A DNA stretch of 49,023 bases. Origin: Rozella allomycis CSF55. Taxonomy: Eukaryota. The notes below the pieces were generated by a model. That model saw only the letters and a list, made by a program, of their open reading frames with translations, had not been told where the DNA came from and did no database searches. Below are positions 31,783 to 41,836 of the stretch, piece after piece. Positions within the stretch are counted from its first letter, which is position 1; each line of letters begins with the position of its first letter. The stretch covers positions 1 to 49,023 of the forward strand of contig KE561207.1 in NCBI GenBank assembly GCA_000442015.1, read 5' to 3'. The position numbers and the translations under genes are program-made.

Positions 31783-32226
31783 CTTTCTTATTTTTTGTAA
31801 AGAGTTATTACAGGATTCAGAAAGAGAATGCAATGTTTGAATCTGTGTGTGTGAATCATTTCTGTCTCCGCATTCAAATTCATAGTGATGTTTAATTTAT
31901 GATTTTTATCACTTATTTCATTTTCATGATAAGATTATGATTATATCACAAATTTACAAATCAGAAATGTTTTTACAAATTTATCTGATATTAGTATTTA
32001 GAAGAGTCTGGATGCAAACCTACACTTCTGACATCATAATGACGTAATTAGGCATTTTCCAAAATCTTCTTTAAGAGATCTCGAGATCATAAGTGATACA
32101 ACTTTACAGTAATCTTATTTAATCAAAGAGATCTTTTTGATTTCGAAAATACGGATCCTATCACATCGCATCATGATCATTTCACGCAAGTCCCAAATAG
32201 TGAGGCGCAGCGAGTCCCTTTATAAA

Positions 32227-35200
32227 ATGCCCGAGATATTTGAGCCGATTCTAGTAGATTTCAGTTCATCGCAATTGCTCTTTGAAACTGAAGCGTTTTC
32301 TTTTTTCCGAGCTATAATGTATAAAGCTCTGCCTAATACGAAACCGATAATGCGGGACGAGAGCAGTGCAAGTCGGGTGTTAATCAAGACGCCTAGTGAA
32401 GAGTTGTTTGACCGTTTGGATGAGGTTGATAGGATTATACCATACTTCCAGAATGAGAAGCGCATGGCAGAGAGGTTTGCATCAAAGTGCGGAATGTTCC
32501 ATGTGCCGAGATGGATTAGGAGAACTCAGGAAGGAATTGCCCTTGTTTATGATGATTTTGGAGGCTGTTCATTAAGGGAGATGTGTTTGAAGATGGGCTT
32601 TAGCGATCGGTTGCGAGTGTTTTTGAAGGTAGCGATTGATATAACTAGAATGTTGTATGTTTTGCATGACAGTGGAGGTGTATTTAGGAATTTGAGTATG
32701 AAATGTTTTTTGGTGGATGATAATTTTGATATGCGCGTCTTTAATTATACGTTGATGAGTTTTGTGGAAAGCGAGAGTGTGTCTTTTGATTTTATTGACC
32801 GATGGGAGTCTAGTATGATTGATTTGCAGTATGTTAGTCCTGAGCAAACAGGGAGGATGAACCGATGTGTGGACTATCGGAGTGATTTTTATAGTTTAGG
32901 GGTTATTTTGTATGAGTGGTTGTGTGGAACTGCTCCTTTTGATGGAGCCGATAGGCATGATTTGGTGTATGCGCATTTGGCTGTGCAGCCGCGACATCCG
33001 AGTGAAGTTTGGAATGAGATTCCTAAAGCGTATGGCGATGTGGTGATGAAGCTAATGTCAAAGAGGGCTGAAGATAGGTATTTTAGTTGTTCTGGATTGT
33101 TGGTGGATTTGGAGAGTTTGACGCGGGGAGTGGATAAATCATTCATAGCCGGGGTCTACGATGATAAGAGTAGATTGATGATACCAGAAAAATTGTATGG
33201 AAGGGAAGAGCAAGTCAAGGCGTAATTTAAGGAGATTATTTTCATGTAGAATAATTGAAGCGTATGAAACAGTTTGTTCTGGACAGGTTGCTGTTGTGAT
33301 GATATCAGGTTATTCGGGAATAGGCAAAACATCTCTTGTTCGTGAGGTGTATAAAGAAATTAGCAGAACAAGGTAACATGAATTGGATTTATTAAAAGGG
33401 GCTTTTTCATTAGTGGAAAATTTGAGCAATTTGGAAGATCGACGCCATTTGAGTCGTTGATCCAAGCATTTAATGGGTTGATAAAGCANTCCAAGCATTT
33501 AATGGATTAATAAAGCATTTATTATCACTTTCGACTGAATTGTTTGAGAAATGGCGCGACAAGATATTGGAAGCTTTGGAAGGCCACGGAGGAGCTCTGG
33601 TTGAGATTATTCCTGGGTTGATTGATATAATTGGCGAGCAAGAAGAGTTACCGAAATTGGGACCTGAAGAAACGACGAAGCGAATGAGTTTAGCGTTGAA
33701 AAAGTTTGTGCGAGTGTTTTGCAGTGTGGAGCATCCGTTGGTGTTATTTATGGATGATATAACGTGGGCGGATGCAGAGTCTCTGAAATTGATGGAAGAG
33801 CTGGCTAATTTGCACGGGATAGCACTGATGTTGATAGGAGCGTATAGAGACAATGAAGTGCCAGTGACGAGTTTGTTGAACGAGGTGTTGGGTAGATTGC
33901 GACACACGGATCATTATTTGTTTGAGATTGTTTTAGAAAAGTTGAATGTGAATGATGTGCAATTGTTCCTGTCTGATTGCCTGTACTACCATATGGCGTC
34001 ACCTAGATTGTGTAAACTGACGCAGCTGCTGTACTCCAAGAGTGGCGGCAATCCGTTTTTTCTGATCCAGTTGTTGAAGCATTTGGTGAGCCAGGGAACT
34101 ATTTATTTTAATTTTGAGATTGGGGAGTGGGAATGGACTGTGGAGGATTTGGAAAAGGTTGAGATTACGGAGAATGTTGTGTATTTGATGATCAAGCTGA
34201 TTCGGGGGATGAAAGAGTCGAATCAGAGAATATTGAAGTGTGCTAGCTGCTGTGGGACTATATTTAAGAGTCGTGATGTTGCAAAGTGTTTGGGGATGAG
34301 CAGTTATGAGCTGGTGGGAGAGTTGGATGAGGCGTTGAAGAATAATTTAGTTGTTAAAGTGAATGGATGTGAGGATATTGAGGCAACGGCAGTAGAGATC
34401 AACACTGGTACTAATATTTGTTATAGACTAAATCAGATAAATTTGATAATTTCAAATATGCGTTTACACATGATAGGATCCAACAAGCGTCGAATGAAAT
34501 GTTGAAAGAAGAGGAGAAGCGAAATATTCATTTAAAATTGGCGCGGTATAATTTATGAAATTTCAGAAATAGATATTATTATGAGGAGTGTTTGAATGAG
34601 AAAATGAAGGAAGAGGCATTATTTGGCATAGTCCAGCATTACAATGAGGCATTAGATCTAGTTGTAGAGGATGAGGAGAGGTTGATAGTGTGTGAATTGA
34701 ATTTGCGCGCGAGCAAGAGAGCCAGGGCCTCTGCGTCGTATTCAACGAGTCTGACGTTTTCCAATGCAGCGATAAGATCGTTCCCTGATAAGCTGAAAAA
34801 AGACCATTTTGAATTTTATTTTAAATTGTTGTTGAATAATTTGGAATCGGAGTATTTGAATACGAATTATGAGAGGGCCAAGGAGATGATAGATTTAGCG
34901 TTGCAAGAGTCGCAGTAAGAATTTAATTGAGAGTTGAGGGGTAGGAGTGAGTTGCAAAAGGCGCAAGTGTTGTCGCACCAGGTGTTGTATAAGACGAGTC
35001 AGGGCAAGGTGTTGGAAGCGATTGAGAGTGGATGGCAGGCGTTTAGGCTGTTGGGGGTTGAGATACCGACTGAGAGTGGGGCTATTGATAGGATGTTTAA
35101 TGAGTTGTTTGAGAAGAATAGGATGTTGTCAAAGGATATTGAAAAGCTGATTGAGTTGCCTGAGATGACTAGAGAAGATTATAGAGTTGTTATAAAGATA

Positions 35201-38200
35201 GGTAATCAGAGATTGATAGTGTTAAAATAGGTAATCAAAGATTGATAGAGTTAAAATAGGTAAATAGAGATTGATAGAGTTAACTAAGGTAAATGGATAA
35301 GTTAATTCACAATAATAGGTAAATAACCCACTACTTTTTGAGAAAGGGATTGATTTGATACCACCAGTTTATTTTGCTAGACCAGAATTGTTGGTGCCAA
35401 TGATATTAAAGTTGGTTGAATTGAGTGTAAAGAATGGAATATCATCATTAACATCATACGTGTATTGTCTATTTGGACTAGTTTTGAGTGGATTAAAGTA
35501 AAAAGAATTTTAATATTTAAAAGATATTATAAGGATTCGTATGTGTTTGGCAAGGCGGCGATGCATGTGTTGGACAAGTATCCGAATGATCCCATCGAGT
35601 GTCAAGTGATTAAAGTGTATGCCAGTCATATCCAATGTTGGAATGAGCCTTTGATGAATACATTGGAAACATTTAATAGAAGTTTGCAAGCAGGGATTAA
35701 TTATGCCAACAAGGAGTATTATGGGTATGGATCAGCTGAGAGAATTATTTATTCATTCTTTTCTGGTGTAAAGTTGGAGTTGATAATGGAGCAGGGAAGT
35801 AGATTGTTGACAATTGTAGAAGAATTGAAGCAAGTAAGTGAATTTGTGTGATGAGAAAGGATATTGGAATTTACTATACGAGATTGTTTCTGCAGTTGAT
35901 TTATAATTTGATCAATTCAGAGTCTGTTATAGATCCGATAATACTAACAGGCCAGTATTTCAATGAGAGTGATTTCCATAAACTGGAGAGTGTGACGTTG
36001 CTAGTGTTTGCATTTTATTTGTGTAAACTGATCTTGTGTGTAGTGTTTGGTGAGTATGACAAGGCGTGTATCTATTCGGCATTGGCAAAGCAGAATGCCA
36101 AGGGAGCGCCTGGACTGTTTATGTTGGCTGAATTGGAGTTTTATGCTACTTGTGGGTTTATTATGGAGTATAGAAATAATAAAGAGTTTCTGATTGATGA
36201 TATTGAGAATGGTTTGAATGAATTGAAAGTTGGGATGAACAGTTGTGAGTATAATTTGGATAATAAGATAAAGATACTGGAAGCATGCAAAGCTGCTATT
36301 ATAGGGGATAGCAATAATAGTTTTAAACATGCTACTCATAGTAATTTTAATCATGAAATTGATCAACATGAAGCAGAGAGGGTAGAACATTTGTTTGATT
36401 TGGCTATTGATGCTTCATTGAAAGATGGGTTTATTCATGAATACGCAATTTGTTTAGAATTGAAGGCAAAATTATTAATGAGATCGAAATCTAATTATTA
36501 CTTGTTGCATCAAGAAGCGTATTATGCGTATTTAAAGTGGGGCTCAACCACCAAGGGACATCAGCTGTTGAATTTAATAGGAAAGCGATTACTGTCAACC
36601 ACACCTAGACTGAATTCATCAACAGTTAGTGAGAAGATTGAAAGAAGGAGTATTGTTGAGATTAATTCAAGTATTTTGATAAAGGCGTGTGAAGTTATTA
36701 ATGATTTGGTTGATTTTGATTCTATTTGTAGAACATTGATGGAGTTGGTTGTCAAGTGTGTTGATGCTGATAGAGGGTATTTGGTTATGCAAGATTTGAT
36801 TAATAATGTAGATCCGCATGTTAAATTGAGTATTGTAGGGAAGAATAGTAAAGGTGAGAATGGTAAAGGAGAGAAGAGTAGTTCTAGTAGTGTGTCTGAT
36901 GGGAGTTCTAGCAGTAACATTCAAATGCACCCATCCACTTGCACTTCTTCTACTTCAACATCGACTACATCTATGGTACCGTGGTCATTGATTAATTATT
37001 GCTTGAGATCTAAAAAGAAAGTGATAAATGAATTTGATGATTTTATTAAAGATGAATATTTTAATTTGAATAAAACAAATCATGTATTGTGTGTTCCATT
37101 GGTTGACAAGGCTAGATGTATTGGATGTGTTTACTTGGAATCCAATAGAATAGGATTTAAACAGGAACAAATAGAAACATTGAAATTGTTATTGTTTCAA
37201 ACTACAACGCATCTTGTGAATTCCATGTTGATTAGTGGGAATGAAAAGAAGGATTTAATGATTGAAAAGCTGAAACAAGATTTGCGAAAGAACAATACTA
37301 ATTTAGAGTCTCTTGTGCAGAATAGAACGAAAATATTGGAAATAAGAAATAAACAATTGACGGATGAAATTCAAGAGAGAAAGAGAATTGAAGTTGAACT
37401 GAAAAGAGCGAAAGATGAAGCAGAAGCAGCAACGTTGTCTAAAAGCCAGTTTCTAGCCAACATGTCACATGAAATAAGAACTCCAATGAATGCCATTATT
37501 GGATTCACTGATCTCTTGCTGTTAACCAATCTGAATTCCAACCAAGCAGAATTCGCATCAAGCGTTAAATCAAGTGCGCAAGATTTGTTAACAATTATTA
37601 ACGATATTCTAGATTTCTCCAAAGTGGAAACTGGCAATATTGTTTTGGAGAGTTTAAAGTTTAATATTGAGAAGAGTATTGAAAGTTGTTTGGAAGTTGT
37701 TAATTCAATCAAGAATTCTGAGAATTTGGATTTGAGTTTGATTGTTAATAAGAATTTGCCAAATTTTGTTATTGGGGATCCTACTAGGTTTAGACAAGTT
37801 GTATTGAATTTGTTGTCTAATGCGATAAAGTTTACAAAGCAAGGGGATGTTTGTATTCAAGTAGAGATTTGTGAAAATGAAGAATGTGAAGATGAACTAG
37901 CAATAGGTAATTTGTATGAAGTGGAATTAACATTAGGTAACTTTTATAGTTTAGATTTAAGGTTAAGGTAATCAATTGACTGACGCACAGTCTTGCTTTG
38001 CACTAAACTCTCCATTACCTTCAGTTAAATCAAACAATTCACATTCTTCTCAACCATCAATCTACTCTAAACAATTCCATTCAACAAGCGAATCATTTCA
38101 TTCATCAAACCCCACAAACAACAAATACCTTCTAGTAGTCAAAGTGTATGATACAGGAATTGGAATCTCCAAAGAAAACAGAAAAAAATTATTCAAATTA

Positions 38201-39349
38201 TTCCAACAAGCAGATTCTTCAATAACAAGAAATTTTGGTGGCACTGGGCTTGGTCTTTCGCTTTCTAAAAGTTTAGCGAATGCTATGGGCGGTGATGTCT
38301 ACATTGCCTCTAGCAAAGTCAACGTTGGCTCGTGTTTTGTTTTTAAATGCAAAGTTGGTATTGATTTCAGCAGCTCTACTTCTTTAATTAGTGATTCTAC
38401 AAGTAAAAGTACAAGCACTTCTAGCACTATGAATATATTAAACAACATGACTTTAAACACTTCTACTCCTACAATGAATATACCTTCTACTTCTACAATG
38501 AATACCCCTTCTACTCCTTCTACAATGAGTACCCCTTCTACTTTTACTTTTACTTCTTCTACTACGTCTACGTCTACTTCTAATGAGTCAAATGATAATG
38601 ACGTTCTAAATTTCAATCTTTTACTAAACAAAAAATATTCCCTCATAGTCGACGACAAATCTTCCTTCTTTTCAAAATCTCTAATCTATTATCTAGAAAA
38701 CACCTTCAACTGCATTCCAAACGACAAAACTCCAGACTTTATCATCATCAAAGATTCATTCCTCCTTCCAACCAACATCCCCTCCACAGTCCCATCAATC
38801 CTCATCAAATCAAAGAAATCCCTTCACAAATCAGCATTCGAACTCACCCAACCAGTCAAACGAAAAGCCCTCTACGAAACAATCATCAAAGCACTCAAAA
38901 TAAACCCAAAAAACAATCTCCAATCTATCCCAGAATCTATTCCCGAAAAATCACAATCTAAAGAAAAAACCATCTCTGACGTTTCCATTCTACTGGCCGA
39001 AGACAATCTAGTCAACCAGAGACTCATATTTCACATGCTAAAGAAGATTGGATACAAGTGCGATCTCGCGGAAAATGGCGTGCAGGTGTTGGAGCTGTTG
39101 GAAAAGAAGACGTACAATATTATACTCATGGATGTGCAGATGCCCGTTATGGATGGGATTACTTGCACTAGGATTATTTTGAAAAAGAATTTGAAGAATA
39201 GACCGCTTATTGTCGCACTCACCGCTAATGCGCTGTCGGAATCAAAGGAAAGATGTTTGGATGCTGGAATGGATGATTTTTTAACGAAACCGATTAAATT
39301 AAGTGAATTGGAAAATGTTTTATCGAAAATTCAATCAACAAGGAAATAA
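32227..39349 (+). CDS. Large hybrid histidine kinase (S/T-kinase-like - AAA ATPase - helical - GAF - HisKA - HATPase - REC), fungal group X / Chk1-Mak type
   Basis: YVSPEQTGRMNRCVDYRSDFYSLG, Walker A GYSGIGKT, HPLVLFMDDITWAD, GGNPFF, HDRIQQ, FLANMSHEIRTPMNAI, NLLSNAIKFT, DTGIGI, GGTGLGL, ILLAEDN..MDVQMPVMDG..FLTKP. Confidence 0.94.
33461..33517. repeat. 28-nt duplication joined by a single N (likely uncollapsed alleles)
   Basis: Two copies differ only at GGG/GGA and TTG/TTA (synonymous). Confidence 0.85.
35202..35346 (+). other. Stack of five abutting mini-intron units (29, 29, 29, 30, 28 nt)
   Basis: Units 35202-35230, 35231-35259, 35260-35288, 35289-35318, 35319-35346 each begin GTAA and end AG; removing all 145 nt gives VIKIGIDLIPPVYFARPELL. 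Confidence 0.85.
37907..37967 (+). other. Stack of two abutting mini-intron units (30 + 31 nt)
   Basis: 37907-37936 and 37937-37967 each GTAA..AG; removal joins ORF 35848-37971 in frame to ORF 37976-39349. Confidence 0.75.
38395..38582 (+). repeat. Ser/Thr/Pro low-complexity coding repeat in the histidine kinase
   Basis: Imperfect units like ccttctacttctacaatgaatacc (PSTSTMNT). Confidence 0.75.
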
Positions 39350-39464
39350 ATTTTTTAATTTAAAAGTAAAAAAGTAATGATATTGATATGTAATGGTGTT
39401 TATATGTAATGATTTAATGTTCAAATAATTTTAATATGATAAATGCAATTTTATTAACATTTAT

Positions 39465-40128
39465 TTAAGCATAATTAAATATCATTGATTCTTCCCTCTC
39501 TAATTTCTTTATCGTTTCAATCAATTCGTTCCTCTGCTTAATCAATCTTGGCCCATGCACAGTCACCTTTTGTTCATACTCATACGGCTTTATCTCTCTA
39601 TTCAGAGTTTCAATTTCCTTTCGCAGTTCCTTACTGTAGCTCTCATACTCTATCCAATCCTCTCCCTCAAACACATTCTTCTTCACCACCATCATATCAT
39701 TCTCAACAGCTATCATTCTATACTCGGACGCTACAATCACTTCCACACTCGTTTCAATAATCTCATCAGCCATCTTCTTAATCTCAGCAATCTTCCTCCT
39801 CACAAAACTCCTCGTCTTTACCCCCCGTCTATTCCACAGCACAACACTCATCAGTCCGCAATACTCTCCATACCCAAGCTTCACAGCATTCAACTGTCTC
39901 TCCACATCCTGCATCTCAGCATTCAGCTCCACCACTAGATAAATTCTCGCATTCTTATACCCACCCATATACCTTCTCGCCCTGCTCATCGCCTTCCACG
40001 CACGCATCTTTTTAAACACACTCGAGCTGCCAAATTCAGGCATGTCAATAATCTCAACACCATTCACTGCCATCCCCTTGCGGCCGTCAAATGTCGCACC
40101 GTCCCTAATTATATTGTTGCCAAACACG
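39465..40128 (-). CDS. 3' part of an unrelated protein (weak P-loop GTPase-like segment + coiled coil), fused in the ORF track to Mdm34 across an N
   Basis: Sequence after the N at 40129 changes base composition; VEIIDMPEFG recalls the IIDTPGFG G3 motif; no Mdm34 similarity. Confidence 0.4.
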
Positions 40129-41271: not shown

Positions 41272-41608
41272 CAATGATGTTGTTTATTTCAATTTACAGA
41301 ATAACATGCGCAATATAGACTTTAGCATATCGGTTAGGATGCTCAGAATGCTTTTGGTTCTAATAGATATTGTTACCAGTGTTTTGCAGAATTTCATATC
41401 TACATTTCGCCATGGAACTAGAAAAACTTCTAATGGCTGNTATTGATAATATTTATTTCAATTTACAGAATAACATGCGCAATACTGACTTTAGCATATC
41501 GGTTAGGATGCTCAAAATGCTTTTGCTTCTAATAGATATTGTTACCAGTGTTTTGCAAAATTTCATATCTACATTTCGCCATGGAACTAGAAAAACTTCT
41601 AATGGCTG
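41272..41608. repeat. ~165-nt duplication joined by a single N at 41440 (likely uncollapsed alleles)
   Basis: Two copies offset by 169 nt with several substitutions. Confidence 0.85.
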
Positions 41609-41836
41609 GATTTCAGCATCTACCACTTCTCCATTACACAATTTTGTTTGCACTGTCATTTTTGAATTGGTCTTTATAGATTTAGAAATTGCGAATAGTA
41701 GACTGGAGAGTGCCGAGTTGTCAATCATGTTCATTAATGGCTTCTTAACAAGTATATATGTTTCAAATTCTGTAGTATTAAAGAGGACGTCGTCTACGAC
41801 TCCAAATGGATCAATGATAACCTTTAGGACAGCCAT
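41453..41836 (-). CDS. Hypothetical small protein (weak PAS-like pattern)
   Basis: Open frame MAVLKVIIDPFGVVDDV...VQTKLCNGEVVDAEI; both duplicate copies keep the frame and the stop. Confidence 0.5.
   Translation of the reverse strand: MAVLKVIIDPFGVVDDVLFNTTEFETYILVKKPLMNMIDNSALSSLLFAISKSIKTNSKMTVQTKLCNGEVVDAEIQPLEVFLVPWRNVDMKFCKTLVTISIRSKSILSILTDMLKSVLRMLFCKLK

Follow-up and report, generated by a model that had tools for sequence, protein, structure and literature searches.

How is an interruption of 145 nt removed from a message whose other introns, as far as homology supports them, are 26–31 nt long? The question is raised by positions 35202–35346 (+ strand) of a 49,023-nt stretch of DNA from Rozella allomycis CSF55 (GenBank assembly GCA_000442015.1, contig KE561207.1, positions 1 to 49,023; hereafter the window), which lie within a gene for a hybrid histidine kinase (HK). 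An earlier reading of this locus (the original prediction) had proposed that the 145 nt are a series of very short introns joined end to end. We find that they are best explained as five complete spliceosomal mini-introns that abut one another, as an array, in a functional HK gene. We further consider it probable, with a good deal of room for doubt, that this array grew by tandem duplication and is removed by consecutive splicing across four zero-length exons.

Structure of the array and its removal from the HK message

The 145 nt parse exactly, as originally claimed, into five abutting units of 29, 29, 29, 30 and 28 nt, every one of which starts with GTAA and ends with AG (Table 1). The exon that precedes the array terminates in ..ATAG, and the four internal AG|GTAA joints fall after positions 35230, 35259, 35288 and 35318. 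Joining the end of the upstream exon to the start of any unit would recreate AG|GTAA in the same context as that of the original donor, and the sequence therefore agrees with the idea that each excision would regenerate a usable 5′ splice site. Units 1–3 are near copies of one another (ungapped identities of 27/29 for units 1 and 2, 23/29 for units 1 and 3 and 23/29 for units 2 and 3) and units 4 and 5 have diverged with their ends kept, both of which had been noted before. Units 3, 4 and 5 all open with GTAAAT immediately after AG. Unit 4 shows marginal similarity to unit 3 (shuffle p ~0.04), and similarity of unit 5 to the other units was not found in the shuffle comparison. Unit 5 is C-richer, has a T run, and contains a competing AG at 35342, 4 nt upstream of its acceptor, the use of which would break the frame.

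Splice sites were scored with a position weight matrix (PWM) and compared with a reference set of 34 introns (donor mean 4.5, standard deviation (sd) 0.8; acceptor mean 4.5, sd 1.2). The donor scores of all units fall within 1 sd of the reference introns, and four of the five acceptors score at least the reference mean minus 1 sd. Moreover, the internal acceptors (6.4, 6.4, 4.3 and 5.4) equal or exceed the terminal one (1.7). Folding of the 145-nt RNA gave no structure joining its ends (z-score -0.02).

HGATAR (GATA-factor-type) motifs occur at 35196, 35214, 35243 and 35272, at spacings of 18, 29 and 29 nt. These four matches, the last three of them at the repeat period, would be expected if the repeat were maintained for some role outside splicing, such as that of an intronic array of GATA-factor sites, with the intron-like parse being incidental. 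However, the motif shares letters with the ..ATAG acceptor-like ends and is copied along with the repeat, it is missing from units 4 and 5, which nevertheless retain their joints, and the array has no match among the RNA families of Rfam at E up to 1. That the motif recurs is probably a side effect of the ..GATAG in the repeat. We regard a function of this kind as very improbable, and it would in any case be compatible with stepwise splicing.

The HK product carries Pkinase-like, AAA_16, TPR-like (middle), GAF, HisKA, HATPase_c and receiver domains (Pfam), and the genetic code is the standard one. Among the 32 possible combinations of retained and removed units, the frame is open in one, in which all five units are removed; any unit that is retained brings in a premature stop. 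When the model with all five units removed was aligned with 12 of 12 intron-less cyanobacterial homologues, there was no gap from ~22 residues before the junction to 40 residues after it. We also used a spliced aligner that is guided by proteins, charges introns a flat cost and does not favour any length, together with two HK guide proteins. This length-blind aligner placed exactly 35202–35346 with both guides, and the array is the sole interruption >31 nt that it placed consistently. With the array removed, the HK gene is collinear with its homologues over 2241 codons. (Note that 29 nt at 33461–33489, which belong to an N-flanked duplicate described below, were left out of the HK model as an assembly artefact.) The reading frame and the homologues together demonstrate that the HK mRNA must lack all 145 nt. 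A protein search with an 84-residue exon returned 77 candidates, none of them significant, and a metagenome scan for the loci of relatives found two loci with 28% identity in the kinase core, neither of them orthologous.

Chance expectation and authenticity of the DNA

Five abutting GTAA..AG units (24–33 nt each) form a chain once in the 49-kb window, its two strands taken together. Among 400 strands of 49 kb simulated with a Markov model, chains reached at most one unit in 331 and two units in 69, and none held a chain of three or more. When the recent duplicates were collapsed (87 nt), a full parse was obtained in 3/100000 simulated intron-like sequences with GTA donors and in 0/100000 with GTAA donors. 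For units 4 and 5 alone (58 nt) the corresponding figures were 902/100000 (GTA) and 356/100000 (GTAA).

The array is carried gap-free by contigs of four DNA runs (X1, X2, X5 and X6; four studies, two organism labels), one of which may be the assembly's own source. In each of runs X1 and X2 one 178-nt contig covers 35190–35367 with 0 differences and 0 gaps, and in each of runs X5 and X6 a single piece spans 34300–36300 with 0 gaps. Among the differences and contig pieces listed for the four runs, there is no indel or joint at the array. The original prediction had allowed for an assembly artefact, in which case the genome would hold fewer units; the contigs of all four runs carry the full array. 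Runs X1 and X2 each have two contig versions of 35400–35544, of which one matches the window exactly and the other shows 8 differences, which suggests that two diverged haplotypes or strains were present in these samples.

What might favour mis-assembly of the array is that the assembly contains, elsewhere, imperfect tandem duplicates (87–95% matches) with a single N at their joins, at 16999, 33489 and 41440, and that one of these is in the HK gene with a period of 29. These duplicates look like unmerged contig or haplotype overlaps. However, the array has no N, the contigs of the four runs carry it without gaps, and its units differ from one another, which lets a k=31 graph tell them apart. 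As for a pseudogene interrupted by the array, the HK gene is open over 2241 codons and collinear with its homologues once the array is removed. We thus give scarcely any credence to either a mis-assembled array or a broken gene.

Length and splice signals of ordinary introns

In three genes of the window, namely HK, that for trehalose-phosphate synthase (TPS) and CYFIP, 24 introns are supported by homology, and all of them are 26–31 nt long. Those of HK measure 28, 26, 29, 27, 30, 26 and 26 nt (five have the same coordinates with both guides and two differ in register), those of TPS 26, 27, 26, 26, 30, 31 and 28 nt, and those of CYFIP 28, 27, 29, 27, 29, 27, 27, 27, 28 and 26 nt (identical with 3/3 guides). 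Consistent with this, a Viterbi parse based on codon usage, with a flat prior of 20–40 nt, placed 57 of 67 predicted introns at 25–31 nt. Apart from GTA(A), an AT-rich interior and AG (rarely TG), the signals of ordinary introns are poor in information. The array units, which are 28–30 nt long and read GTAA..AG, match these introns, and the earlier remark that the units are sized like nearly all introns of the window is borne out. (Two other ways of finding introns were dropped: a gene finder of our own with a flat intron penalty to 400 nt, which over-called long introns by skipping short exons, and the joining of pairs of open reading frames, which was too noisy.)

Two introns that the frame requires in TPS, whose product is 51–65% identical to chytrid and zygomycete proteins, have no in-frame GT..AG solution; they start with GT and end with TG (Table 1). 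With both of them removed, the TPS protein aligns gap-free with 6/6 homologues through two invariant motifs. When TG acceptors were permitted, the alignment scores rose from 2094 to 2289 and from 2316 to 2505, and improbable calls of 81 nt and 46+17 nt were replaced. Unless the TG sites are sequence errors, these findings suggest that the 3′ cut may be selected mainly by its distance from the donor or branch point. The original idea of a spliceosome tuned to ~28 nt receives indirect support in so far as the range of intron lengths is narrow and TG appears to be used at +27 or +30.

Stepwise removal or a single reaction

We propose that the spliceosome would pair a donor with a 3′ site ~26–31 nt downstream. 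Given the strong internal acceptors, the little information in the splice signals and the lack of a structure that joins the ends of the array, the donor at 35202 should pair with the strong acceptor at 35230, and these two would be joined first. The first joining would recreate ..ATAG|GTAA, and the cycle would then repeat over the four zero-length exons in up to five consecutive reactions. Other orders of removal, or pairings of the donor with later acceptors, would converge on the same mRNA.

Alternatively, the 145 nt could be one unusually long ordinary intron, in which one reaction pairs the donor at 35202 with the branch point and with the acceptor at 35346, and the internal joints are unused relics of neutral tandem duplication. 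Spliceosomes generally tolerate longer introns, and the array is the lone case in the window. Several considerations speak for this alternative or otherwise weigh against unit-by-unit removal. First, the terminal acceptor, the use of which is obligatory, is the weakest of the five, and we infer the number and order of the splicing steps. Second, the footprints of 3′- and 5′-site recognition overlap at a zero-length exon, which might hinder assembly on single units. Third, the joints of units 1–3 arise automatically when a segment that bears AG|GT is duplicated, and therefore they give no sign of selection; unit 4 is possibly an older copy (p ~0.04), which would leave the joint between units 4 and 5 as the sole clearly independent one, and the probability of that joint by chance, 0.4–0.9%, is small but not vanishing. 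(The original prediction had taken the kept ends and lengths as a suggestion of selection on the architecture of the units. For the joints of units 1–3 this falls away; the joint between units 4 and 5, and less surely that between units 3 and 4, would be independent.) Fourth, the introns behind the length rule number 24 and come from three genes in a single 49-kb window, and the two TG acceptors could be sequence errors. Lastly, the aligner also made longer calls, namely of 53 or 123 nt near the 5′ end of CYFIP (differing between guides), of 41–389 nt in the 3′ part of CYFIP, where conservation is poor (different with each guide), and of 201–576 nt within open, non-conserved parts of HK. These longer calls we regard as probable alignment artefacts because the guides disagree on them or the frame does not need them. 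(Aligner pseudo-introns also bridge the N-flanked duplicate at 16853–17067.)

Several observations argue against a single reaction. None of the 24 homology-supported introns exceeds 31 nt, and the internal acceptors of the array are on a par with or above those of bona fide introns and far above its terminal one. In TPS, TG is used at +27 or +30, in one case despite an AG at +46, as if the nearby site wins, and there is no RNA structure that would bring distant ends together. Furthermore, the repeat period of 29 nt and the lengths of unit 4 (30 nt) and unit 5 (28 nt) all lie in the middle of the range of intron lengths, whereas those of a neutral repeat inside a long intron need not. We therefore consider removal in a single reaction unlikely, if quite conceivable, and favour consecutive splicing of the units.

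A broader proposition, which we put forward tentatively and hold to be doubtful, is that the Rozella spliceosome acts as a molecular ruler. It would never or almost never remove more than ~31–35 nt per reaction, and would cut the 3′ site by distance even where no in-frame AG is present, as at the TG acceptors. Longer interruptions would then exist only as concatenations of minimal introns, for which recursive splicing would be obligate, and slippage or tandem duplication of segments one intron long with AG|GTAA would be a live route of intron gain.

Origin of the array

Tandem Repeats Finder calls a repeat that begins 9 nt within the upstream exon (Table 1). Its period of 29 nt and the identities given above show that units 1–3 arose recently by tandem duplication of 29 nt; the intron first present was probably unit 5, with unit 4 as an older copy. 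Thus, the claim that the array grew by tandem duplication holds for units 1–3, and its extension to units 4 and 5 is something that we infer. We suggest that the array would have grown by repeated tandem duplication of a segment one intron long that bears the AG|GTAA joint, which would be classical intron gain by tandem duplication, acting here at an existing 5′ splice site. The interiors of units 1–3 are G-richer than those of the 34 reference introns (0.20 vs 0.125), and the exon tail has weak similarity to the unit interiors (shuffle p 0.04–0.11). Together with the start of the called repeat within the exon, these features hint that the duplicated segment may have spanned the exon–intron boundary.

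Comparison with known systems

Recursive splicing with zero-nucleotide exons, or ratchet points, is established in Drosophila (bioRxiv 10.1101/006163), and two cases of it, described as the first in a yeast and including the SPNCRNA.445 intron, have been reported for Schizosaccharomyces pombe (bioRxiv 10.1101/226894). These cases, in a fungus whose introns are short, mean that such splicing is less confined to very long animal introns than the original prediction had supposed. The Rozella array resembles recursive splicing in that a 3′ site adjoins a 5′ site (AG|GT), a donor would be regenerated with each step and the final mRNA is unchanged. It differs from the known cases, in which the introns are long (336 nt in S. 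pombe, very large in flies) and are divided at a single point or a few. The array totals 145 nt, each of its segments is minimal (28–30 nt), its four joints follow one another and three of its units are copies in tandem. For the known cases intermediates have been documented; for the Rozella array they are predicted.

The array also resembles stwintrons and other complex intervening sequences of fungi (Lipomyces, Hypoxylaceae), which consist of several U2-type units and are removed by consecutive reactions. In a stwintron, however, an internal intron interrupts a splice signal of an external one (the donor, branch point or acceptor), so that the two are nested and the order of removal is obligatory. 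The Rozella units are complete and serial, with the GTAA and AG of each unit intact, and would be independent in principle. The earlier contrast, in which the intervening sequences of fungi were nested and not abutting, was too sharp; complex intervening sequences of Lipomyces starkeyi include abutting donor elements, for which donor duplication has been proposed as the origin (PMC7138796).

When tandem duplication gives rise to an intron, the intron is as long as the duplicated segment (PMC2891723; for intron gain by tandem duplication see also PMC4974935). The array is like such gains in that AG|GT is present in every repeat copy, the period of the direct repeat (29 nt) equals the length of its units (29 nt) and the spliced mRNA is unchanged. 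In the classical form, exon sequence is duplicated and one new intron comes to lie between exons, whereas in Rozella the duplication included an existing 5′ site, was iterated and left no exons between the copies. Ultra-short introns have been reviewed (PMC13644364; see also PMC5014332), and the S23 ribosomal-protein gene of R. allomycis is described as having two introns of ~30 nt (PMC6349667). Like genomes with ultra-short introns (ciliates, microsporidia, dicyemids and myxozoans), that of Rozella has a sharp mode of length below ~30 nt and signals of approximately GTA..AG; unlike Rozella, these genomes have neither concatenated arrays nor TG acceptors in the descriptions consulted. In the literature searched, supplementary tables apart, we came upon no account of abutting mini-introns in tandem arrays and, on intron length in R. 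allomycis, nothing beyond the remark in PMC6349667.

The array joins two known mechanisms in a new form. If removal unit by unit is true, this would be the most compact recursive splicing known, with four zero-length exons in 145 nt, and a natural experiment on how a spliceosome of 26–31-nt introns measures length, in a lineage near the microsporidia. It would also show tandem duplication in the course of adding introns at a splice site that was already there, which would explain why repeat period and intron length are equal. Gene models that do not provide for introns of 26–31 nt, TG acceptors or arrays will be wrong, and the public model of CYFIP already loses a conserved exon. This model (P0121; 335 aa; 14600–15900, - strand) joins across ~133 nt and ~47 nt. 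The lost exon lies between introns at 15599–15625 (27 nt) and 15451–15478 (28 nt) in all four guides. The existing annotation seems not to be tuned to introns of 26–31 nt.

Table 1 Coordinates of the array, the host gene, ordinary introns and other features of the window
Feature	Coordinates	Strand or context	Description
Host gene, HK	32227–39349	+	11-exon model, 2241 codons, no stop; start codon predicted
Upstream exon	34945–35201	+	ends in phase 1, ..ATAG
Unit 1	35202–35230	+	29 nt, GTAATC..ATAG; PWM donor 4.8, acceptor 6.4
Unit 2	35231–35259	+	29 nt; 27/29 identical to unit 1; donor 4.9, acceptor 6.4
Unit 3	35260–35288	+	29 nt; 23/29 identical to units 1 and 2; GTAAAT; donor 5.1, acceptor 4.3
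Unit 4	35289–35318	+	30 nt, diverged; donor GTAAAT, acceptor ATAG; donor 5.2, acceptor 5.4
Unit 5	35319–35346	+	28 nt, unrelated sequence; donor GTAAAT; donor 4.1, acceptor 1.7
Downstream exon	35347–35497	+	in frame only when exactly 35202–35346 is absent
Tandem repeat	35193–35283	+	Tandem Repeats Finder: period 29, 3.1 copies, 90% matches
Ordinary intron (HK)	33222–33249	+	28 nt; homologue alignment and length-blind aligner
Ordinary intron (HK)	33373–33398	+	26 nt; homologue alignment and length-blind aligner
Ordinary intron (HK)	34408–34436	+	29 nt; two guides gave differing registers (35 or 17 nt)
Ordinary intron (HK)	34546–34572	+	27 nt; in-frame 21-nt alternative
Ordinary intron (HK)	34915–34944	+	30 nt; aligner favoured 34909–34938, also 30 nt
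Ordinary intron (HK)	35498–35523	+	26 nt; homologue alignment and length-blind aligner
Ordinary intron (HK)	35834–35859	+	26 nt; homologue alignment and length-blind aligner
TPS intron	20304–20330	-	27 nt; AG at +20 skipped, TG end
TPS intron	19693–19722	-	30 nt; no internal AG, TG end; AG present at +46
Possible two-unit array	37907–37967	+	37907–37936 (30 nt) abuts 31-nt intron 37937–37967; AG|GTAA joint
N-flanked duplicate	16900–17099, N at 16999	single-N join	period 101
N-flanked duplicate	33460–33518, N at 33489	HK gene coding exon	period 29; would shift frame by 29 nt if real
N-flanked duplicate	41283–41612, N at 41440	single-N join	period 169

Other features of the window

Further downstream in the HK gene, 37907–37967 could be a second, two-unit array or contain a 10-codon coding duplication. 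The first 30 nt of this segment are a multiple of 3, have no in-frame stop and are weakly similar to the exon tail (p ~0.1). The segment falls in an insertion relative to HK homologues, and with ~1.5 abutting pairs per strand expected by chance it is indistinguishable from a chance occurrence.

On the minus strand, an 18-nt GTTA..CAG gap at 17941–17958 was placed with 3/3 CYFIP guides, and reflects either an intron of unusually small size or a misalignment behind which a non-canonical intron is hidden. A search of a protein atlas with a CYFIP fragment gave no score of at least 0.9. The coding strand of HK has an excess of G over C, with a skew of +0.35 to +0.45 in 2-kb windows over 32001–38000; at 38001–40000, which holds the end of HK and the start of a minus-strand gene, the GC skew is -0.36.

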